Assembly (NCBI RefSeq): GCF_050920415.1
Contig: NZ_CP169309.1
DNA length: 64,000 nucleotides
From: Escherichia coli
GTDB lineage: Bacteria; Pseudomonadota; Gammaproteobacteria; Enterobacterales; Enterobacteriaceae
Reading direction: 5' to 3' (one strand)
Shown: one piece after another, positions 2,717-61,902 of the stretch
Layout: every line of letters starts with the position of its first letter
Numbering within the stretch: the first letter of the stretch is position 1
Made by a program: the position numbers and the translations under genes
The notes under the pieces: model-generated
Told to the model about the DNA's origin: nothing
The model's database searches: none
What the model saw: only the letters and a program-made list of their open reading frames with translations

Positions 2717-3493
2717 ATGTCCGAAACAAAAAACGAACTTGAAGACCTGCTGGAAAAAGCAGCAACTGAACCGGCGCACCGTCCGGCCTTTTTCCGTACT
2801 CTACTGGGATCCACCGTCTGGGTGCCTGGTACGGCGGCGCAGGGCGAGGCTGTGGTTGAAGATAGCGCGCTTGATTTACAGCACTGGGAAAAAGAAGACG
2901 GCACCAGCGTCATTCCTTTTTTCACCTCGTTAGAAGCACTTCAACAGGCGGTTGAAGACGAACAGGCATTTGTCGTAATGCCCGTTCGCACATTGTTTGA
3001 GATGACCCTTGGCGAAACGCTCTTCCTTAATGCCAAACTGCCAACCGGTAAAGAATTTATGCCGCGTGAAATCAGTTTGCTGATTGGTGAAGAAGGGAAT
3101 CCGCTGAGCAGTCAGGAAGTACTGGAAGGCGGTGAATCGCTGATATTATCGGAGGTTGCAGAGCCGCCAGCGCAAATGATTGATTCACTTACCACCTTAT
3201 TTAAAACCATTAAGCCGGTGAAGCGTGCTTTTATTTGTTCAATTAAAGAGAACGAAGAGGCACAGCCTAATTTACTTATTGGCATTGAAGCCGATGGTGA
3301 TATCGAAGAAATTATTCAGGCGGCGGGAAGTGTAGCGACCGATACATTACCTGGCGATGAACCCATCGATATTTGTCAGGTGAAAAAAGGGGAAAAAGGA
3401 ATTAGCCACTTTATTACCGAACATATTGCGCCATTCTATGAACGTCGCTGGGGGGGATTCCTGCGTGATTTTAAACAGAATCGAATAATTTAA
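2717..3493 (+). CDS. sseB: Enhanced serine sensitivity protein SseB
   Basis: ORF 2708-3493; ATG at 2717 gives 258 aa; conserved neighbour of pepB and sseA. Confidence 0.85.
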   Translation: MSETKNELEDLLEKAATEPAHRPAFFRTLLGSTVWVPGTAAQGEAVVEDSALDLQHWEKEDGTSVIPFFTSLEALQQAVEDEQAFVVMPVRTLFEMTLGETLFLNAKLPTGKEFMPREISLLIGEEGNPLSSQEVLEGGESLILSEVAEPPAQMIDSLTTLFKTIKPVKRAFICSIKENEEAQPNLLIGIEADGDIEEIIQAAGSVATDTLPGDEPIDICQVKKGEKGISHFITEHIAPFYERRWGGFLRDFKQNRII

Positions 3494-3494
3494 A

Positions 3495-3948
3495 ATATGC
3501 CGCCCCAAAGGGCGGCATTCGGGCTTACTTGCTGTTCTGAAGGTTGTTAACCATCAGTAAATTGTTGCCGGAGGGACTCCGGTTATTATTTACCTCGGTT
3601 AACAGCGCACCAGAAACAATAAGTACGATACAGAAGTACCGTATCTTCATTGTGCGGTCCATGCGAAGACCGCATCACGACAGCACCACTGGCGATATTG
3701 CCGCGATAGCAAGCGCTGTGGGGTGCCTGCATTTACGGTCATGGAACATCCTTTCCTAAAGCCAGCGCCCGTTTGCGAGACGGCGAAAAGGGCCGTCACG
3801 AATAATACCCTCATATTTGAATAATTACTCTATTTATTATCTTGACTTAGCCAGGCATAAAAGAGAGTATTTCAACACTGTGGGGTGCCTGCGTTGCTCC
3901 GGCAACACAAGTCAACCTGCTGGAAAGGCCGCGAACCAGACCAGCAAT
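3495..3948. ncRNA. ryfA: Intergenic region expected to carry the RyfA small RNA (boundaries and strand not resolved)
   Basis: Recollection that ryfA lies between sseB and sseA in E. coli K-12; region has hairpins (3499-3516, 3651-3675), a 15-nt direct repeat ctgtggggtgcctgc at 3715 and 3878, and is flanked by a bidirectional terminator. Confidence 0.3.
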
Positions 3949-15526: not shown

Positions 15527-16645
15527 ATGCATAACCAGGCTCCAATTCAACGTAGAAAATCAACACGTATTTACGTTGGGAATGTGCCGATTGGCGATGG
15601 TGCCCCCATCGCCGTACAGTCCATGACCAATACGCGCACGACAGACGTCGAAGCAACGGTCAATCAAATTAAGGCGCTGGAACGTGTTGGCGCTGATATC
15701 GTCCGTGTCTCCGTACCGACGATGGACGCGGCAGAAGCGTTCAAACTCATCAAACAGCAGGTTAACGTACCGCTGGTGGCTGATATCCACTTTGACTATC
15801 GCATTGCGCTGAAAGTAGCGGAATACGGGGTCGATTGTTTGCGTATTAACCCTGGCAATATCGGTAATGAAGAGCGTATTCGCATGGTGGTTGACTGCGC
15901 GCGCGATAAAAACATTCCGATCCGTATTGGCGTTAACGCTGGATCGCTGGAAAAAGATCTGCAAGAAAAGTATGGCGAACCGACGCCGCAGGCATTGCTG
16001 GAATCTGCCATGCGCCATGTTGATCATCTTGATCGTCTGAACTTCGATCAGTTCAAAGTCAGCGTCAAAGCGTCTGATGTCTTCCTCGCTGTTGAGTCTT
16101 ATCGTCTGCTGGCAAAACAGATCGATCAACCGCTGCATCTTGGGATCACCGAAGCGGGCGGCGCACGTAGTGGGGCAGTAAAATCTGCCATTGGTTTAGG
16201 CCTGCTGCTGTCTGAAGGCATCGGCGACACGCTGCGCGTATCGCTGGCGGCCGATCCGGTCGAAGAGATCAAAGTCGGTTTCGATATTTTGAAATCGCTG
16301 CGTATCCGTTCGCGCGGGATCAACTTCATCGCCTGCCCGACCTGTTCGCGTCAGGAGTTTGACGTTATCGGTACGGTTAACGCCCTGGAGCAACGCCTGG
16401 AAGATATCATCACCCCGATGGACGTTTCGATTATCGGCTGCGTGGTGAATGGACCAGGTGAGGCGCTGGTTTCTACACTCGGCGTCACCGGCGGCAACAA
16501 GAAAAGCGGCCTCTATGAAGATGGCGTGCGCAAAGACCGTCTGGACAACAACGATATGATCGACCAGCTGGAAGCGCGCATTCGTGCGAAAGCCAGCCAA
16601 CTGGATGAAGCGCGTCGAATTGACGTTCAGCAGGTTGAAAAATAA
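15527..16645 (+). CDS. ispG: 4-hydroxy-3-methylbut-2-enyl diphosphate synthase
   Basis: 372 aa; C-terminal Cys motif CPTCSR...GCVVNGPGE. Confidence 0.9.
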
Positions 16646-16755
16646 TAACGTGATGGGAAGCGCCTCGCTTCCCGTGTATGATTGAACCCGCATGGCTCCC
16701 GAAATATTGAGGGGCGCGTTGAGGGTTCATTTTTATATTCAGAAAGAGAATAAAC

Positions 16756-47368: not shown

Positions 47369-47445
47369 TTACCTATAAGGTAACAAAATATTCTAAACTC
47401 TATTGATTTAGTGTCTTATGTGGTTTTTAATTACCTCAGAGGTAA
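47369..47445. promoter_or_regulatory. Two perfect operator-like palindromes TTACCTATAAGGTAA (47369-47383) and TTACCTCAGAGGTAA (47431-47445) flanking a putative promoter
   Basis: Perfect matches to TTACCT-N3-AGGTAA; the second ends 3 bp before the ATG at 47449. Confidence 0.5.
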
Positions 47446-51083: not shown

Positions 51084-52555
51084 CAGATACAGCGTTATCT
51101 CCTGAAGAGCAGTTGATCGAGGATATTGCAGGGTTCACTCACGATCCGCTTGGCTATGCCCTCTATGCGTTCCCGTGGGGGGAAGAAGGGACTGAACTGG
51201 CACATGCTACCGGCCCACGTCAGTGGCAGGCTGATGCGTTCCGAGAGATACGTGATCACCTGCAGAATCCAGCGACGCGCTATCAGCCGCTTATGCTGGC
51301 ACGCGCTTCTGGTCACGGTATTGGTAAATCCGCATTCATCTCAATGCTGATCAACTGGGGCATGTCCACTTGCGAGGATTGTAAGGTCGTGGTGACCGCC
51401 AACACCGACAACCAGCTACGAACGAAGACCTGGCCGGAAATTATCAAGTGGTCGAACCTTGCTATCACGAAAGACTGGTTTACCTGTACCGCTACCGCGA
51501 TGTACAGCAATGATCCTGGGCACGACAAGCGGTGGCGAGCTGACGCAATCCCCTGGTCTGAGCACAACACTGAGGCATTCGCCGGACTACACAACGAGCG
51601 CAAACGCATCATCGTGGTATTCGATGAAGCGTCGAACATTGCGGATCTGGTGTGGGAAGTTGCTGAGGGTGCGCTTACGGACGAAGACACTGAGATTATC
51701 TGGGTGGCGTTCGGAAACCCTACACGTAACACCGGGCGTTTCCGCGAATGTTTCCGCAAATATAAACACCGCTGGAAAACTGCGCAGATTGACAGCCGGA
51801 CGGTGGAAGGCACTAACAAACAGCAGTTGCAGAAATGGGTTGATGACTACGGGGAAGACAGCGACTTCGTTAAAATCCGTGTGCGCGGCATATTCCCGGA
51901 TGCATCTGAATTGCAGTTTATCCCTACCGGACTTACTGACGAGGCAATGAAACGGGTGGTAACCGCTGCGCAGGTTGCACATGCTCCGGTGATAATCGGC
52001 GTTGACCCGGCATACTCCGGCGTTGATGACGCTGTGATATACCTGCGGCAGGGGCTGCATAGTAAGGTGCTGTGGACCGGCAACAAGACCACTGATGATC
52101 TGATTATGGCGAAGCGTATCGCTGACTTTGAAGACCAGTATCAGGCTGACGCGGTGTTCATCGACTTCGGTTACGGTACCGGGCTGAAGTCAATCGGTGA
52201 CGGTTGGGGGCGCACATGGCAACTTGTTCCGTTCGGTGGCGCGTCTACTGACCCGCAGATGCTCAACAAGCGTGGGGAGATGTTCAACTCATGCAAGACA
52301 TGGCTGAGGCTGGGCGGCATGCTGGATGACCAGGAAACAGCGGACGACCTGTCGGCGGCAGAGTACAAAGTTCGAGTGGACGGTAAAATCGTTATCGAAC
52401 CGAAGGAAGATATCAAGGAGCGGCTTGGGCGTTCGCCGGGTAAAGGCGATGCGCTACTGCTGACGTTTGCGTTCCCTGTGTCTAAGCGTCTGCGAATTCC
52501 CGGGCAGCAGAACCAGCAAGGCAAGGCCATTACAGATTACGATCCCTATGCTTAA
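51080..52555 (+). CDS. Terminase large subunit
   Basis: 491 aa; ATPase domain (Walker A-like ASGHGIGKS, Walker B VVFDEAS) and nuclease domain. Confidence 0.85.
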   Translation: MTDTALSPEEQLIEDIAGFTHDPLGYALYAFPWGEEGTELAHATGPRQWQADAFREIRDHLQNPATRYQPLMLARASGHGIGKSAFISMLINWGMSTCEDCKVVVTANTDNQLRTKTWPEIIKWSNLAITKDWFTCTATAMYSNDPGHDKRWRADAIPWSEHNTEAFAGLHNERKRIIVVFDEASNIADLVWEVAEGALTDEDTEIIWVAFGNPTRNTGRFRECFRKYKHRWKTAQIDSRTVEGTNKQQLQKWVDDYGEDSDFVKIRVRGIFPDASELQFIPTGLTDEAMKRVVTAAQVAHAPVIIGVDPAYSGVDDAVIYLRQGLHSKVLWTGNKTTDDLIMAKRIADFEDQYQADAVFIDFGYGTGLKSIGDGWGRTWQLVPFGGASTDPQMLNKRGEMFNSCKTWLRLGGMLDDQETADDLSAAEYKVRVDGKIVIEPKEDIKERLGRSPGKGDALLLTFAFPVSKRLRIPGQQNQQGKAITDYDPYA

Positions 52556-52645
52556 TCCGTTAGCGGGGATAATGACGGAGATATCCTCTGGTGAGGATAA
52601 AACAAAGCCAGCTCATCGGCTGGCTGTTTGTGACATGTCACGGTG

Positions 52646-53017
52646 TTATTGCTCGCTTAACTTCTGCTTCAGCAAGTAACCTTCAAGCATCCAGATTTTG
52701 TTTACAGCATTCTGCCGGGCAATCTTCCGACCAATTTCCGCATCAAAGTTTTCCGGGCTTGCACAGGCGCTCTCTCCGGTGACGGTGAAGCCATTGCGCA
52801 GCACCAGAACGCAGAACGTCAGCAGAGAAAGTGATTCGTGCGGCTGGTAGTTTACCTCTCCGCCAGTATGTTTCGCTTTTATGGCTACGCCAAAGATACC
52901 ATCTTCTGCTGTGAAATATGCCTCCTGAGCAATAATACTCTCGATATGGTCTGGCGTAACGCGCGGCGCGGCTAAACCTTTAGCCTGAATTTCAGATTCA
53001 ATGTCTTTGTCACTCAT
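52646..53017 (-). CDS. Hypothetical protein on opposite strand within late region (possibly Gp49/Sf6-gp66-like)
   Basis: 123 aa; antisense to surrounding late operon and adjacent to tRNA; moron-like placement. Confidence 0.5.
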   Translation of the reverse strand: MSDKDIESEIQAKGLAAPRVTPDHIESIIAQEAYFTAEDGIFGVAIKAKHTGGEVNYQPHESLSLLTFCVLVLRNGFTVTGESACASPENFDAEIGRKIARQNAVNKIWMLEGYLLKQKLSEQ

Positions 53018-53221
53018 AGTCTAATCTCACCTTAAAAAAATGCCCGGCGAACCGGGCGAACTGGAAGCAATGAGTTATGCCTTCCGTGGCTGTACTGGTT
53101 TACAGCATGAAGCCATCGCAATGGCGTCCTGCTGTAAAAAGGGCGGTGATAGTCCTTCAAGGGAAACCATCACCGCCAAGCCCCTGGAACTTCTGGCATC
53201 ACGGTCCTTAGGCGTGATTCT

Positions 53222-53298
53222 GGCGTGGCATGCAGGATTCGAACCTGCGACCGACCGCTTAGAAGGCGGTTGCTCTGTCCAACTGAGCTAATGCCACA
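53222..53298 (-). tRNA. tRNA-Arg (anticodon UCU), argU-like, prophage-encoded
   Basis: Folded by hand: acceptor GTGGCAT/ATGCCAC, D-arm GCTC..GAGC, anticodon stem ACCGC/GCGGT with loop CTTCTAA, T-arm GCAGG-TTCGAAT-CCTGC, discriminator G, CCA. Confidence 0.8.
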
Positions 53299-53619
53299 AC
53301 GCTGAGAGCACTTAGCCTGTTAAGGCGCCACACTTTGTCGCGGCTCCATAAATGCTCTCATCGTTGCACCCTCGTCTCTTCCGAGGCGTCACACCGAATC
53401 GCCGGGATGGTGAATCCCCGTGCGCGGAATAAAACCGCTCGACTTGCACATTCCGGCTACCTGGTTCGTTTGCCCGAGCAAGGGAGGGTGCCCATTAAAC
53501 GTATCCAGACCGCTATCGGCGCATGTGCCATACGCCGTACTGCTCAAAATAAAATCTCACTCCACCTGTTCAATTTAACGACAAGCCAGTCAGGTTAATA
53601 ACAGGAATGCACTCTCTGC

Positions 53620-53634
53620 TTACCTGAAAGGTAA
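53620..53634. promoter_or_regulatory. Perfect operator-like palindrome TTACCTGAAAGGTAA upstream of late structural genes
   Basis: Perfect match to TTACCT-N3-AGGTAA, about 90 bp upstream of the 53725 ORF. Confidence 0.45.
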
Positions 53635-53724
53635 TAATTCGTGCGTTAAATGTCAACTGTCTACGATAAATAAATCATATGTGGTTAAATTGGTAATAAT
53701 TTAATTGCGTACGGAGTCATTGAT

Positions 53725-53931
53725 ATGTGCATGGGTAGCTCACCATCAGTGCCTGCAACACCAGAAGTTCAGGCAGCACCACAGGAGCAGGATGCCGCCG
53801 TTGTTGATGCCCGCGACGAAGAAACACGTCGCCGTCGCGCTGCTGCTGGTCGTAGTTCTACGCTGCTTACCGGTTCTCAGGGTGACACATCAACCGCTAA
53901 TACCAGCGGTAAAACGCTGCTTGGTCAGTAA
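53725..53931 (+). CDS. Small hypothetical protein (68 aa) upstream of portal
   Basis: ATG with RBS acggag 8 nt upstream; overlapping alternative frame 53705-53944 makes call uncertain. Confidence 0.35.
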   Translation: MCMGSSPSVPATPEVQAAPQEQDAAVVDARDEETRRRRAAAGRSSTLLTGSQGDTSTANTSGKTLLGQ

Positions 53932-53945
53932 CCGGAGTCATTGAA

Positions 53946-55625
53946 ATGGCGGAAACAACTAAAGAGCGATTGAACAAACAGTTCGCACAACTTGAAAGCG
54001 AGCGTCAGTCGTTCGAGCCGCACTGGCGCGAGTTGAGTGATTACATCAACCCGCGTGGTTCCCGCTTTCTGACTTCTGAGGTCAACCGTAACGATCGACG
54101 CAATACACGCATTATTGATTCGACCGGGACTATGGCGGCGCGCACTCTCGCCAGCGGCATGATGTCAGGCATCACAAGCCCCGCGCGTCCGTGGTTTCGC
54201 CTGGCTACGCCAGATCCTGAAATGATGGATTATGGCCCTGTTAAGTTGTGGCTTGAGGCGGTGCAGAACCGCATGAACGATATGTTCAATAAGTCGAATC
54301 TCTATCAGTCGCTGCCGCAGTTATACGGAAGCCTCGGCACATACAGCACTGGTGCAATGGCGGTACTGGAGGATGACGATGACATCATTCGCACAATGCC
54401 ATTCCCGATAGGCAGTTACTACCTGGCTAACTCACCTCGTGGCAGTGTGGACACCTGTTTTCGCAAGTTCTCTATGACTGTTCGTCAGCTTGTTCAGGAG
54501 TTCGGGCTAAATAACGTCAGCGAATCCGTAAAAAGCATGTGGGAAAGCGGCACCTACGAGAAGTGGATTGAAGTGATGCATTCGGTTTACCCGAACATTG
54601 ACCGCGATACATCGAAGCTGGATAGCAAGAACAAGCCATTCAAATCGGTTTATTACGAGGTTGGCGGTGATAACGACAAGTTGTTGCGTGAGTCAGGATT
54701 CGATGAGTTTCCAATTATGGCTCCGCGCTGGGAAGTTAACGGCGAAGATGTTTATGGATCATCATGCCCGGGTATGCTGGCGCTTGGACCTGTTAAGGCA
54801 TTGCAGCTTCTCCAGAAGCGCAAGTCGCAGTTGATTGATAAAGCCACCAATCCGCCGATGATTGCTCCGACTTCCCTCAAGAATCAGCGCGCCTCCCTTC
54901 TTCCTGGCGACATCACGTATATCGATCAGATTACTGGTCAGGATGGTTTCAGGCCTGCTTATCTGGTTAACCCCAGTACAGCAGATCTGGTGGCAGACAT
55001 TCAGGACACTCGTCAAATCATTAACAGTGCCTACTTTGTCGATCTGTTCATGATGTTGCAGAACATCAATACCCGTTCGATGCCTGTTGAAGCGGTGATC
55101 GAAATGAAAGAAGAAAAACTTCTGATGTTGGGGCCGGTTCTGGAGCGTCTGAACGACGAATGTCTTAATCCTCTCATTGACCGCGCTTTCTCGATGATGG
55201 TGCGTAAAAACATGCTGCCGCCCCCGCCTGACGCGATGGAAGGTATGCCCCTGAAGGTCGAATACATTTCCGTCATGGCTCAGGCGCAGAAGTCTATCGG
55301 CCTGTCCAGTCTGGCGTCTACGGTCAACTTCATTGGTCAACTTGCGCAAGCGAAACCAGAAGCTCTCGACAAACTCAACGTTGATCAGGCAATCGATGCA
55401 TTCGCTGATATGTCCGGAGTGTCTCCAACCGTCATTGTTCCGCAGGAACAGGTTGAGCAGGCTCGCCAGCAACGGGCACAGCAACAACAGCAGCAACAAA
55501 TGATGGAGATGGGGATGGCGGCGGCACAGGGTGCCAAGACGCTAAGCGAAGCTAAAACTTCGGATCCGAGTGTTTTGTCAGCTATGGCGAATGCAGTTAG
55601 TGGTCAGGGTGGGCAATCACAATGA
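53946..55625 (+). CDS. Portal (head-to-tail connector) protein
   Basis: 559 aa; size and position after terminase; C-terminal Q-rich tail. Confidence 0.7.
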   Translation: MAETTKERLNKQFAQLESERQSFEPHWRELSDYINPRGSRFLTSEVNRNDRRNTRIIDSTGTMAARTLASGMMSGITSPARPWFRLATPDPEMMDYGPVKLWLEAVQNRMNDMFNKSNLYQSLPQLYGSLGTYSTGAMAVLEDDDDIIRTMPFPIGSYYLANSPRGSVDTCFRKFSMTVRQLVQEFGLNNVSESVKSMWESGTYEKWIEVMHSVYPNIDRDTSKLDSKNKPFKSVYYEVGGDNDKLLRESGFDEFPIMAPRWEVNGEDVYGSSCPGMLALGPVKALQLLQKRKSQLIDKATNPPMIAPTSLKNQRASLLPGDITYIDQITGQDGFRPAYLVNPSTADLVADIQDTRQIINSAYFVDLFMMLQNINTRSMPVEAVIEMKEEKLLMLGPVLERLNDECLNPLIDRAFSMMVRKNMLPPPPDAMEGMPLKVEYISVMAQAQKSIGLSSLASTVNFIGQLAQAKPEALDKLNVDQAIDAFADMSGVSPTVIVPQEQVEQARQQRAQQQQQQQMMEMGMAAAQGAKTLSEAKTSDPSVLSAMANAVSGQGGQSQ

Positions 55626-58826: not shown

Positions 58827-59431
58827 TGGCCTCTGTAGTAGAGATCTGCAATCGTGCGCTGTCCAATATTGGCAATAGCCGCAGCATTAACAGCCTGACG
58901 GAAGCCAGTAAGGAAGCGGGGGAATGTTCGCTGCACTTTGAGGCCTGCCGTGATGCTGTGCTTTCTGATTTTGACTGGAACTTTGCTACCAAACGCGTGG
59001 CGCTTGCAGATACGAGCAATCCACCGCCTGACTGGGAATATGCGTATCAGTACCCGTCAGATTGTCTGCGCATTACTGAAATTATGCTTCCTGGTGTACG
59101 CAATCCAACAGCAGCAATGCGCGTTCAGTACGAAGTTGGTGCAGACACCGACGGAACAGGAAAGTTGATCTACACAGACCAGCCGCAGGCATGGCTCAAG
59201 TATGTCTCTCGCGTTTCAGATGTGAACATGTTTGATGCCATTTTTATGGAGGCGTTGGCCTGGCGTCTTGCGGCAGCCATTAACATGGCGCTGACTGGGA
59301 ATGCGGATCTCGGTACATTTGCTCTCAATATGTACAATCGCGTGATTCTTAGTGCTGGCTCGCATAGCCAGAATGAATCACAGGAACCACAGCCACCGGT
59401 TGACGAGTTTACCATTGCGAGGTTGTCCTGA
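58826..59431 (+). CDS. Putative tail/adaptor protein (201 aa)
   Basis: Start overlaps previous stop; position before a large tail-like protein. Confidence 0.4.
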   Translation: MASVVEICNRALSNIGNSRSINSLTEASKEAGECSLHFEACRDAVLSDFDWNFATKRVALADTSNPPPDWEYAYQYPSDCLRITEIMLPGVRNPTAAMRVQYEVGADTDGTGKLIYTDQPQAWLKYVSRVSDVNMFDAIFMEALAWRLAAAINMALTGNADLGTFALNMYNRVILSAGSHSQNESQEPQPPVDEFTIARLS

Positions 59432-61902
59432 TGGCTATCAGTTGGATCCAGCCCAGCTTTGCCGGTGGTGAGATTGGACCGTCGTTGTACGGTCGTATCG
59501 ACATGGCGAAGTACCAGGTGGCATTGCGCAAGTGCGATAACTTTATCGTGCGGCAGTATGGCGGCGTTGAGAATCGACCTGGTACGCGTTTTGTCGGTGC
59601 CGCCAAATACCCAAATCGGAAATGCCGCCTGATCCCGTTCCAGTTCTCGACGGTTCAGACCTACGCTCTGGAGTTCGGACACCAGTACATGCGCGTTATC
59701 AAAGATGGTGCGTTGGTGCTGAACAGCAGCAATGTTATTTATGAAATTGCCACGCCATATACTGAAGCCGATCTGTTCCGAATTAAATTCACGCAAAGCG
59801 CCGACGTGCTTACGCTGGTTCACCCGGCATACCCGCCGAAAGAGTTGCGCCGCTATGCGCATGATAACTGGCAACTGGTTGATGTGGTAACGAAGAACGG
59901 GCCATTTGAAGATATCAATATTGACGAGTCAGTGACGGTTTATGCCAGCGCCAGCACCGGGACAATTACGTTAACGGCAAGCGCCTCTATTTTTGGCGCG
60001 GAGCAGGTAGGCAAATTGTTCTATCTGGAACAGCCTGCAGTGGATTCTGTGCCGGTATGGGAAACCAGTAAGAGTACGTCGATTGGCGATATTCGCCGTG
60101 CAGACAGTAACTACTATCGCGCCGTTACAGCAGGCAAAACAGGCACTTTGCGCCCTTCGCATACAGAAGGCACATCATGGGATGGCTGGGGCGGATCCGG
60201 TGATGATGATACCGGCATTGAGTGGGAGTATCTGCACAGTGGTTTTGGCATTGCCCGTATCTCTGCTGCAAATGGAACTACTGCAACTGCCGAGGTGATT
60301 TCCTATATCCCTTCGCAGGTCGTTGGCGAGGATAATGCCAGCTATAAATGGGCTAAATATGCCTGGAACAGTGTTAATGGTTATCCTGGCACTGTTGTTT
60401 ATTATCAACAACGTCTTTACTTCGCCGCATCGACTGCGTTCCCTCAGACTATCTGGGCCAGCCGTACTGGGGATTATAAGGATTTTGGCAAAAGCAATCC
60501 TACGCAGGATGATGACAGAATTATCTACACCTATGCCGGGCGTCAGGTTAATGAGATCCGTCACCTGATTGATGTAGGTTCGCTGGTGGCGCTGACTTCC
60601 GGAGGTGAGTACGTCATCACCGGCGACCAGAACAAAGTGTTAACCCCATCATCATTTGCATTTAGCTCTCAGGGATCAAATGGCTCAAGCAACGTCCCAC
60701 CAATTGCTGTGGCGAATATTGCTCTGTTCGTCCAGGAGAAAGGCAGTGTTGTCCGTGATCTGGCCTACTCATTCGATGTTGACGGCTATCAGGGGAACGA
60801 CCTTACTATCCTTGCCAATCATCTTTTTCAGAAGCACAGCATTGTTGACTGGTGCTTCTCTATTGTCCCTTACTCCAGCGCCTTCTGCATTCGTGATGAC
60901 GGTAAATTACTGGTGATGACCTATTTGCGTGATCAACAGGTTTTTGCATGGGCACCACAGTCCAGTACCGGAAAATATGAAAGCACATGCAGTATCAGCG
61001 AAGGAAATGAAGATGCGGTGTATTTCGTCGTTAACCGAACCGTTAACGGGCAAACAGTGAGATACATCGAGCGGCTGTCCAGCCGTTTATTTACCAGCGA
61101 TGAAGATGCTTTCTTTGTTGATTCTGGCCTTAGCTATGATGGAAGAAATACGTCTGACAGAACGATGACCATCACTGGTGGTTCTGGTGAATGGGATTAC
61201 CGCGTGGAATATACAATCAGTATTTCTGGTGGTGCGTACTTCACCAGTAGTGATGTCGGTGCGCAACTACAATTCCCTTATACCGGAACTGATCCTGATA
61301 CTGGCGATGAAGTGTCAAAAGAATTACGTTGCGACATTATTTCTGTAACCAGCAATACCGCTGTAGTGGTTCGTGCTAACAGGAACGTCCCGCCATCCCT
61401 CAGGAATGTGGCCACCACGAACTGGCAGATGGCGCGCCGGACATTTGGAGGCCTGTCTCATCTTGAAGGCCAGACCGTAAACATTCTCTCTGATGCGAAC
61501 GTGGAACCACAGAAAGTGGTTTCCGGAGGTGCCGTCACGCTGGAATCTCCGGGGGCTGTAGTGCACATCGGCCTGCCAATAACTGCTGAATTCGAAACAC
61601 TGGATATCAACATTAACGGACAGGAAACGCTGCTGGACAAAAAACAGGTGATCCCATCCGTTACTCTGGTTGTGAATGCCAGCCGCGGCATCTGGGCGAC
61701 TACGCCCGGCGGTAAATGGTACGAATATCCACAGCGTGAATTCGAGTTCTACGATGATCCTGTTGATGATGCTACCGGAAAAGTAGAAGTGAAACTGGAC
61801 AGTAACTGGGGCAAAAACGGACGTGTAAAAATCCGTCAGCTTGATCCGTTGCCGCTGTCTGTTCTTGCCGTTATTCCTCGCCTTACTGTTGGGGGATTCT
61901 GA
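59431..61902 (+). CDS. Large structural protein, putative tail tube/nozzle protein (823 aa)
   Basis: Size and position in structural module; ATGA overlap with previous gene. Confidence 0.5.
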   Translation: MAISWIQPSFAGGEIGPSLYGRIDMAKYQVALRKCDNFIVRQYGGVENRPGTRFVGAAKYPNRKCRLIPFQFSTVQTYALEFGHQYMRVIKDGALVLNSSNVIYEIATPYTEADLFRIKFTQSADVLTLVHPAYPPKELRRYAHDNWQLVDVVTKNGPFEDINIDESVTVYASASTGTITLTASASIFGAEQVGKLFYLEQPAVDSVPVWETSKSTSIGDIRRADSNYYRAVTAGKTGTLRPSHTEGTSWDGWGGSGDDDTGIEWEYLHSGFGIARISAANGTTATAEVISYIPSQVVGEDNASYKWAKYAWNSVNGYPGTVVYYQQRLYFAASTAFPQTIWASRTGDYKDFGKSNPTQDDDRIIYTYAGRQVNEIRHLIDVGSLVALTSGGEYVITGDQNKVLTPSSFAFSSQGSNGSSNVPPIAVANIALFVQEKGSVVRDLAYSFDVDGYQGNDLTILANHLFQKHSIVDWCFSIVPYSSAFCIRDDGKLLVMTYLRDQQVFAWAPQSSTGKYESTCSISEGNEDAVYFVVNRTVNGQTVRYIERLSSRLFTSDEDAFFVDSGLSYDGRNTSDRTMTITGGSGEWDYRVEYTISISGGAYFTSSDVGAQLQFPYTGTDPDTGDEVSKELRCDIISVTSNTAVVVRANRNVPPSLRNVATTNWQMARRTFGGLSHLEGQTVNILSDANVEPQKVVSGGAVTLESPGAVVHIGLPITAEFETLDININGQETLLDKKQVIPSVTLVVNASRGIWATTPGGKWYEYPQREFEFYDDPVDDATGKVEVKLDSNWGKNGRVKIRQLDPLPLSVLAVIPRLTVGGF

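Follow-up and report, generated by a model that had tools for sequence, protein, structure and literature searches.

A structured leader RNA ahead of tRNA-Arg(UCU) and an acb4 homologue in a phiV10-like Escherichia coli prophage: a candidate repressor-controlled counter-defence operon

Several phage RNAs are encoded in the leaders of early operons. The put RNAs of phages HK022 and HK639 stand in the nascent early-operon transcript behind a repressor-controlled promoter and have terminators downstream, and the HK022 element acts in cis on the transcribing polymerase, giving factor-independent terminator read-through that is lost in mutants of the RNA polymerase beta' zinc-binding domain. The nutR site of phage lambda contains the boxB hairpin GCCCU-GAAGA-AGGGC, whereas the CI RNA of P4 and the C4 RNAs of P1 and P7 are structured immunity RNAs from the leaders of repressor-controlled operons. 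At the protein level, anti-CBASS 4 (Acb4) forms tetramers that act as a sponge, sequestering 3'3'-cGAMP and related signals of the cyclic oligonucleotide-based antiphage signaling system (CBASS); its family is defined as Pfam PF13876, eight of eight purified homologues bind 3'3'-cGAMP, and homologues from Gram-negative hosts also bind 3'3'-cAA (Chang et al., PMC11722364). Here, we analyzed a 64,000-nucleotide stretch of an E. coli chromosome (contig NZ_CP169309.1, assembly GCF_050920415.1; hereafter the window), in which a phiV10/epsilon15-like (Uetakevirus) prophage carries a minus-strand unit between its terminase and portal genes. This unit consists of a structured leader RNA, a tRNA-Arg(UCU), and a 123-residue homologue of Acb4. 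Taken as a whole, it is best explained as a repressor-controlled, lytic-phase counter-defence operon with a leader RNA, a reading to which we give a probability of roughly 0.55.

The leader occupies positions 53294–53546 on the minus strand. An earlier note, made from the letters of the window alone, had described the region 53299–53700 as noncoding in appearance and unexplained. The first half of this description stood, as the region has no conserved open reading frame (ORF), but the second did not, because a structured RNA, a promoter, and an operator are found there. A protein-coding reading of 53299–53600 was rejected, given that core lengths fall evenly into the three classes modulo 3 and that no anchored frame is open in all sequences.

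The structural evidence comes from covariation. Covariance model R1 scores the window leader at 141.9 bits, and the complete leader, of about 250 nt, contains six covariation-supported helices (P1–P6). Among 34 sequences less than 97% identical to one another, five helices were paired in 95.4% of cases, compared with at most 46% when the partners were slid; eight pairs showed changes on both sides, and none of 500 column shuffles reached the observed values. An extended set of 68 distinct sequences, whose alignment was fitted to the model and is hence biased toward structure by construction, gave 96.5% paired cells against at most 47% in the slid controls. This set contains 10 pairs with double changes and 124 compensated cells, and again 0 of 500 shuffles equaled the observation. 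Furthermore, several invariant or common G-U pairs (15-25, 37-119, 38-118, and 12-28 in alignment A5) exist on the minus strand only, which makes the RNA strand the same as that of the tRNA and acb4. On this covariation, we take the leader to be a real structured RNA encoded on the tRNA strand.

The core of the leader, with helices P1–P5, extends from 53546 to 53366 (minus strand) and is followed at 53365–53294 by a hypervariable cassette enclosed by the long helix P6 (YRCAAC-GAUGAGAGCA... paired with ...UGCUCUCAGC-GUUGUG). P6 covaries richly and closes a cassette of 35–100 nt that shows no relation from one copy to the next and is exchanged separately from the core; the 3' strand of P6 overlaps the 5' end of the tRNA by about 3–4 nt (GUGG). 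The single-stranded blocks of the leader are invariant across phage P1, lambdoid phages, and Uetakeviruses. A long-range P2 pairing proposed by RNAalifold was replaced by a local helix, P2', that shows U-A to C-G covariation. Some cassettes, those at loci L036, L057, L092, L082, and L015, contain hairpins resembling a tRNA T arm (CUGGUUCAAUUCCAG, AGGGUUCGAAUCCCU) within a long acceptor-like stem, and ARAGORN called no tRNA in them.

No Rfam family accounts for this RNA. At gathering thresholds, Rfam 15 matched only the tRNA in this region when the whole window was searched, and on 52500–54000 with E values up to 10, nothing overlapped 53299–53546. A full-text literature search on the invariant leader strings returned unrelated primer sequences only. 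The lambda PreS/LPR1 small RNA was considered as an identity for the leader and set aside, as its location and size differ.

We then compared the leader with the RNA systems introduced above. Neither an nhmmer profile at maximum sensitivity nor model R1 with filters off matched HK022 putL, HK022 putR, or HK639 putL, and homology to put was rejected at both the profile and the covariance-model level. One 14-nt HK022 match lies inside the nun coding sequence and is a chance similarity. What the new RNA has in common with put is its setting: it likewise would be part of a nascent early-operon transcript behind a repressor-controlled promoter, with terminators downstream, and its lambdoid carriers hold it at the putL position, past the cI stop codon and behind oL-like operators and pL. 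The stem of helix P1 (ACGGCG...CAUGCGYCG...AGCGG) resembles putL stem I (ACGGCGCG...CAUGCGUCGG...AGCGCGG) by eye only, and put is an element of about 70 nt with two stem-loops, whereas the new RNA has about 170–250 nt and six helices. Helix P5, a 5-bp stem with the purine-rich loop GAAGAGA, recalls nutR boxB, with a loop of 7 rather than 5 nt, and the 3' strand of P6 often reads UGCUCUUU, which we take to be the core of the rrn boxA, although the string is base-paired here and absent in some variants (e.g. L070); these likenesses to nut and boxA are readings of the sequence only. The P4 CI and P1/P7 C4 RNAs also adjoin a substrate for tRNA-type processing and contain a variable segment. However, the new RNA has no sequence or Rfam similarity to them and is much larger, and no complementary target was identified, although none was systematically sought.

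The leader is widespread. Segment 53294–53546 has 70–83% identity across Uetakeviruses and lambdoid phages, the latter including mEp460, cdtI, and the Stx2a, Stx2c, and Stx2k phages. A search of IMG/VR with the two invariant blocks returned at least 120 loci, and among bacteria represented by one genome per species, the exact motif was confined to Enterobacterales. Two short contigs from metagenome-assembled genomes assigned to Bacillota/Lachnospiraceae hold near-perfect copies of the motif and are most likely mis-binned Enterobacterales phage DNA. By BLAST, the leader RNA is present in 1839 of 5426 complete E. coli genomes, with 554 matching places on plasmids, and no annotated feature underlies it at any BLAST-matched place in these genomes. 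Even if it is not an antiterminator, the leader thus ranks among the commonest unexplained structured RNAs in E. coli.

In lambdoid phages, the RNA is always encoded on the cI strand, about 130–240 nt past the cI stop codon, where it heads the early-left genes and is preceded by a promoter-like site just upstream. In mEp460, the two 15-bp palindromes (TTGCG-N5-TGCAA) that precede the RNA are of a kind also found between cI and cro, and they mark the oL/pL position. Some lambdoid pL leaders (IMG/VR loci L065, L102, L103, and L122) have a tRNA-Arg(tct) 370–460 nt past the RNA core; therefore, the leader RNA and tRNA-Arg travel together in more than one phage type.

A third setting is provided by phage P1 and P1-like phage-plasmids, which score 113–117 bits with the covariance model. 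The copy in phage P1 (NC_005856, 71015–71201, plus strand) scores 116.9 bits although P1 was absent from the training set, and its helix P5, GCCGG/CCGGC, represents three compensatory pairs. It falls in the 286 nt, devoid of annotation, that separate trnI (tRNA-Ile) from ban within the C1-controlled ban operon. In this phage, a 15-codon ORF (MPIISDIQHAWVEC) that has a Shine-Dalgarno sequence of its own extends over the start codon of ban. Across the three unrelated phage groups, the RNA is always found in repressor-controlled early units.

The control of the window unit was read from its promoter region. The palindrome TTACC-N5-GGTAA has 13 matches with at most one mismatch, compared with 1.05 expected, and 11 of these are in the prophage: five flank the repressor gene (44264, 44326, 45038, 45086, and 45423), one is located ahead of int (38197), two are ahead of the small terminase gene (50455 and 50473), and the others are at 47369, 47431, and 53620–53634. 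Homologous sites in epsilon15 were annotated as repressor-binding by the authors of that genome, and the copy at 53620–53634 (TTACCTGAAAGGTAA) is the presumed repressor site of the unit. The palindrome heads most operons of the prophage, including those of int, the small terminase, and the head genes. This arrangement suggests that one repressor controls many prophage promoters directly.

The leftward sigma-70-type promoter of the unit (53628–53656, minus strand) has a consensus −35 hexamer, TTGACA (53656–53651), a 17-nt spacer, and a −10 hexamer, TACCTT (53633–53628), that falls inside the palindrome. The TTGACA-17-TACCTT arrangement is kept in SPN1S, in epsilon15, and at locus L129. A promoter-scanning tool proposed an overlapping alternative, TAGACA-18-AATTAT, at 53663–53634; another candidate, TTGAAC-16-TATTTT at 53574–53546, is specific to the window, is not kept in relatives, and was dropped. 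From these features, we infer a repressor-controlled leftward promoter with a transcript that would start about 85 nt upstream of P1. The unit is expected to be repressed in the lysogen and expressed in lytic growth, since its sole conserved promoter has the −10 hexamer within the operator.

Downstream of the tRNA, two terminators separate the promoter from acb4. T1 (53133–53177, minus strand), found by terminator scan and conservation, lies about 44 nt past the tRNA and has a 14-bp stem followed by CUUUUU; its stem changes are compensatory across eight Uetakeviruses. The intrinsic terminator T2 (53034–53057, minus strand; terminator scan) reads GCCCGG-UUCG-CCGGGC followed by A and U7. Its U7 tract is invariant, and the stem GCCCGG/CCGGGC is replaced by GCCCAC/GUGGGC in epsilon15, SPN1S, and PAT1. 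The Shine-Dalgarno sequence AAGGUGAG (53033–53026) directly abuts T2, 8 nt before the ATG of acb4 at 53017, and the gene with this site occupies 52646–53033 on the minus strand. As the interval from T2 to the start codon is too short to hold a promoter, acb4 would be made only through read-through of T1 and T2. Between the two terminators, the hairpin H2 (CAGCAGGACGCCAUUGCGAUGGCUUCAUGCUG; 53099–53138, minus strand), a self-complementary match, and the string GCCAYGGAAGGCA (53058–53098, minus strand) are near-invariant in the alignment of eight Uetakeviruses and more conserved than neighboring coding DNA.

In epsilon15 and VB_ST_E15, only the promoter, helix P1, and half of the first variable hairpin are kept, fused to T1. 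The junction falls in the 13-nt string TTCCCTTGATGCT, which SPN1S-type phages have in both the V1 and T1 loops; epsilon15 lost P3–P6 through recombination between two such copies. In many phages, the V1 and T1 loops share UUCCCUUG. As for the lambdoid setting, the 330-nt interval that separates the RNA from the first early-left gene of mEp460 (minus strand) folds unusually well (z = −4.7). It contains a 13-bp hairpin with CUUUUU after it and, next, a perfect hairpin of 25 bp; the terminator-like structure is long-looped and was apparent by folding only.

Among relatives, the region is a mosaic in which acb4 is present or replaced and the tRNA is found in some phages only. Segment 53027–53171 is nevertheless kept in every Uetakevirus examined, and the junction of T2, Shine-Dalgarno sequence, and ATG (53015–53057 in the window) is kept in eight Uetakeviruses, whereas the ORF behind it varies. 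The earlier note's description of reverse-oriented accessory cargo between packaging and head genes fits these data, since other relatives hold different cargo there. The junction thus serves as a socket that holds acb4 in the window, phiV10, epsilon15, and VB_ST_E15, and as the second gene in BUCT554. The cargo of Klebsiella phage ST512-KPC3phi13.3 matches Tad2 structures over residues 74–173, its C-terminal 100 residues (E ~5e-16). Tad2 (DUF2829) is an anti-Thoeris sponge; its gene is absent from the window and is mentioned for context only. Because two different immune-signal sponges, Acb4 and a Tad2-like protein, occupy this slot, the comparison argues that the socket is a counter-defence locus. 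The socket proteins of TL-2011b, Tyrion, PAT1, and SPN1S have no functional assignment. Given the sponges found in the same socket, the unassigned genes (PHROGs 3163, 4846, 18493, and 11227) are candidates for new anti-defence proteins.

The gene in the window socket was correctly placed by the earlier note as a minus-strand ORF of 123 codons between terminase and portal (52646–53017), but the note had left it without an identity. The protein instead falls in the Acb4 family of anti-CBASS sponges. It matches Pfam PF13876 (N4 Gp49/Sf6 gene 66, "Phage_gp49_66") with E = 3.3e-35 over model positions 1–82 of 82, and more than 8000 relatives were found, all with PF13876. Its sole solved sequence relative is PDB entry 9E4W, Acb4 of Bacillus phage SPO1 (E = 0.007). 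An AlphaFold2 monomer model built from 27 homologues (pLDDT 88.9) has three antiparallel strands flanked by helices, as in the Acb4 protomer, and the best 13 PDB matches returned by Foldseek were all 9E4W chains (probability 1.00, target TM-score 0.59–0.70). Family Table S3 of PMC11722364 lists the phiV10 protein Q287B5, from which the window protein differs by two residues. Assignment to the Acb4 family is secure by profile and by the fold of the model.

In addition to the full-length Pfam match and the fold, the window protein has in common with SPO1 Acb4 the conserved motif ENF-x-x-EIGR, kept here as ENFDAEIGR. It is longer (123 compared with 96 residues) and has a further helical segment at the N terminus as well as an insert at residues 40–62. 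Of the ten SPO1 ligand contacts tested (K36, F48, E49, V56, Y57, F62, N63, I66, T70, and K81), three are identical, namely F77, F91, and I95, corresponding to SPO1 F48, F62, and I66. Among the changed contacts, K36 is replaced by L65, E49 by T78, Y57 by alanine, and K81 by methionine. With the guanine-specific K36 and E49 replaced, the base preference of the window protein may differ from that of SPO1 Acb4. PADLOC 2.0 gave no match for the protein, and NCBIfam release 20 gave no family at E values up to 0.1 despite the RefSeq name "Gp49 family protein." PHROG 322 is labeled "unknown function," and neither PHROG 322 nor PADLOC 2.0 carries the Acb4 assignment.

The second product of the unit is the tRNA (53221–53297, minus strand). 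ARAGORN called a single tRNA in the whole 64-kb window, a tRNA-Arg with anticodon tct and an encoded CCA end, and Rfam model RF00005 scores it at 72.2 bits against a gathering score of 29. The tRNA-Arg(UCU) that the earlier note had recognized by eye is thus accepted by both predictors, and it is not identical to the chromosomal argU. It agrees with K-12 argU at 64 of 77 positions. The 13 substitutions preserve pairing: the acceptor stem reads GUGGCAU/AUGCCAC in the phage tRNA and GCGCCCU/AGGGCGC in argU, the other differences are in the anticodon stem, one D-loop base, and the variable loop, and every stem change is compensated. In contrast, the anticodon, the anticodon loop CUUCUAA, the T arm, and the encoded CCA are the same, the D arms are alike, and the arginine identity elements A20 (in GGAC), C35, and U36 are kept. 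The phage tRNA further differs from argU in following a structured leader whose last helix overlaps its 5' end. Its sequence identifies it as a complete gene that has diverged from argU rather than a piece of argU, in keeping with the phage origin that the note had proposed.

Many phages carry tRNA-Arg genes, as this prophage does, and codon usage offers a reason. Per 1000 codons, the prophage has 5.0 AGA and 4.0 AGG and the window's host part 2.2 and 1.0, rates that rest on crude ORF calls; both codons are thus commoner in the prophage. They are concentrated in replication/early genes and in tail/injection genes, almost absent from the terminase, portal, and capsid genes, and not used at all in acb4. 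Supply of AGA/AGG decoding would be a sufficient conventional rationale for the tRNA.

Together, these features outline an operon that would run, in order, through an operator-overlapped promoter, a leader RNA of ~250 nt, tRNA-Arg(UCU), T1, T2, the Shine-Dalgarno socket, acb4, and a terminal hairpin. The unit would be silent in the lysogen and fire early upon induction or infection. RNase P would release the tRNA from the leader, and the tRNA would then provide for AGA decoding in the early and tail genes, which are rich in AGA/AGG. The gene acb4 would be reached only by polymerase that reads through both T1 and T2, and its product would sequester the host CBASS signal. Our proposal for the read-through step is a cis effect of the leader RNA on the elongating polymerase, as with HK022 put. 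This mechanism is preferred because the RNA heads early repressor-controlled units, strong terminators follow it in the window, it takes the putL position in lambdoid phages, and mEp460 has a Q-like but no N-like protein annotated. Taken alone, cis antitermination is a tentative proposal, and we consider the odds to be somewhat against it. A broader idea, which we regard as a doubtful possibility, is that the leader is the first of a new class of phage regulatory RNAs, found in P1, lambdoid, and epsilon15-like phages and unrelated in sequence to put, that acts on RNA polymerase or another conserved host factor to switch on early accessory operons, exchangeable cassettes of counter-defence sponges among them.

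Several observations weigh against this operon model. Epsilon15 and VB_ST_E15, which are without P3–P6, still keep T1/T2 and acb4; hence, in epsilon15-type phages, either the RNA is not strictly needed for acb4 or acb4 is poorly expressed. In phage P1, some 2.3 kb separate the RNA from the ban promoter, and no obvious terminator was seen before ban. A simple terminator scan downstream of the RNA at 90 loci found consistent sense-strand terminators in the Uetakevirus context only, although mEp460 does have its terminator-like, long-looped hairpin. The hypervariable P6 cassette has no role in a model of pure antitermination. As to the protein, with only three of the ten SPO1 contacts kept, ligand specificity is less secure than family membership. 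Finally, the binding of the repressor to the palindrome rests on the epsilon15 annotation and the motif distribution, not on experiment, and the steps of the operon were derived from sequence.

In the main rival, the leader is a stable RNA, trans-acting or processed, that RNase P would free with a defined 3' end by cutting at the tRNA. A conserved host factor (for instance RNA polymerase, a nuclease, or a chaperone) would be bound through the invariant loops, and the P6 cassette could confer specificity or recognize a target, by analogy with the P4 CI and P1 C4 immunity RNAs, which RNase P also processes. Such a role would suit the swapping of 35–100-nt cassettes independently of the core within a covarying stem, the T-arm-like sequences in some of them, and the invariance of the single-stranded blocks across the three phage groups. 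The RNA also adjoins a tRNA in three settings: tRNA-Arg follows it in the window and in some pL leaders of lambdoid phages, and in P1 a tRNA-Ile precedes it by 6 nt. However, no target complementarity was identified, although no systematic search for it was made; several loci and P1 lack P6 and the cassette, with P5 running into a Shine-Dalgarno sequence and an ORF; and Rfam C4 and other phage RNA families do not match the leader. We regard this rival as rather unlikely. The ~170-nt core with its multi-helix junction, the invariant unpaired nucleotides, the position in a 5' leader, and the terminators downstream resemble the architecture of riboswitches, and the leader could be a riboswitch-like sensor that gates T1/T2 read-through in response to a metabolite or nucleotide. 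Here, however, the variable domain and a whole tRNA separate the terminators from the core and leave no obvious expression platform based on alternative pairing, the downstream genes (ban, early-left genes, and sponges) are mutually unrelated, and no known riboswitch family matches (Rfam 15, E up to 10), which makes a sensor very improbable. Hardly credible is a role for the conserved stretch as DNA, as a protein-binding or recombination site. It adjoins operators and promoters and has mosaic junctions at its edges, but G-U pairs are invariant or frequent at no fewer than five positions, where the other strand would have A-C mismatches. Moreover, the helices keep their pairing through double changes while the sequence varies, and in each of the three phage groups the element points the same way with respect to the transcription unit beside it.

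Other rivals concern the unit and its tRNA. The earlier note had taken the cargo for a moron. In the classical form of this reading, the unit would be expressed from the prophage, the tRNA would offset rare AGA/AGG codons, the 123-residue protein would be a lysogenic-conversion factor, and the flanking DNA a mere spacer. Much of this description was borne out: the unit is reverse-oriented, is inserted between conserved genes with its own promoter and terminators, and varies among relatives, and AGA/AGG are enriched in the prophage. The doubtful part is expression in the lysogen, as the conserved promoter has its −10 hexamer within the operator. In addition, the gene is a member of a counter-defence family, of use to the phage while it infects, the supposed spacer is under strong structural constraint, and the rare codons are missing from acb4 and nearly so from the terminase, portal, and capsid genes. 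The sequence argues against lysogen expression, the unit is probably no classical lysogen-expressed moron, and we think this reading quite improbable. Alternatively, the tRNA itself may serve mainly in counter-defence, with the diverged tRNA-Arg(UCU) replacing or outlasting host tRNA-Arg cut by anticodon nucleases. Phage tRNAs able to escape tRNA-targeting defences are known from other phages, the tRNA shares an operon with Acb4- or Tad2-type counter-defence genes, and its anticodon and acceptor stems differ from those of argU. On the other hand, its anticodon loop is identical to that of argU, whereas escape mutations are usually found in the loop, and the AGA/AGG enrichment of the prophage already provides a conventional reason for the gene; a mainly defensive tRNA is therefore improbable.

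The tRNA and acb4 are ordinary by themselves. Annotations exist for the two of them, and a description of the protein family dates from 2024. A near-identical RefSeq genome labels them "tRNA-Arg" and "Gp49 family protein," and as annotation they are already known. The interest lies in the conserved socket that takes up counter-defence sponges behind two terminators, and in the leader that heads it, an unannotated RNA found also in Shiga-toxin phages and in the textbook phage P1. Should the leader prove to be a cis antiterminator, it would offer an answer to how early-left operons are operated in lambdoid phages that have no N protein, and it would show how phages time their anti-immune genes. 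An RNA of the proposed new class would also explain how early terminators are passed in lambdoid phages that have no recognizable N protein.

The prophage is inserted downstream of guaA and extends past the right end of the window; in the window, Rfam also places ryfA (3492–3796) and sroE (16645–16736). The large terminase subunit ends at 52555, the portal gene starts at 53946, and the intervening 1.39 kb is 98.8% identical to phage phiV10 and 99.9% identical to several RefSeq E. coli chromosomes. Just beyond acb4, a hairpin at 52606–52625 is common to the converging terminase operon (plus strand) and acb4 unit (minus strand); the terminator scan matched it on the minus strand, and phiV10 annotates a rho-independent terminator there on the plus strand. 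In the phiV10 reference (NC_007804), the tRNA is unannotated, and a plus-strand "hypothetical protein," PhiV10p04, is drawn over it instead; the same spurious 83-residue ORF can be read in the window at 53040–53291 (plus strand). Finally, in the near-identical prophage of strain SCU-116 (NZ_CP051719), the large virion gene is flagged as a pseudogene with an internal stop, whereas its counterpart in the window (59431–61902) is open.

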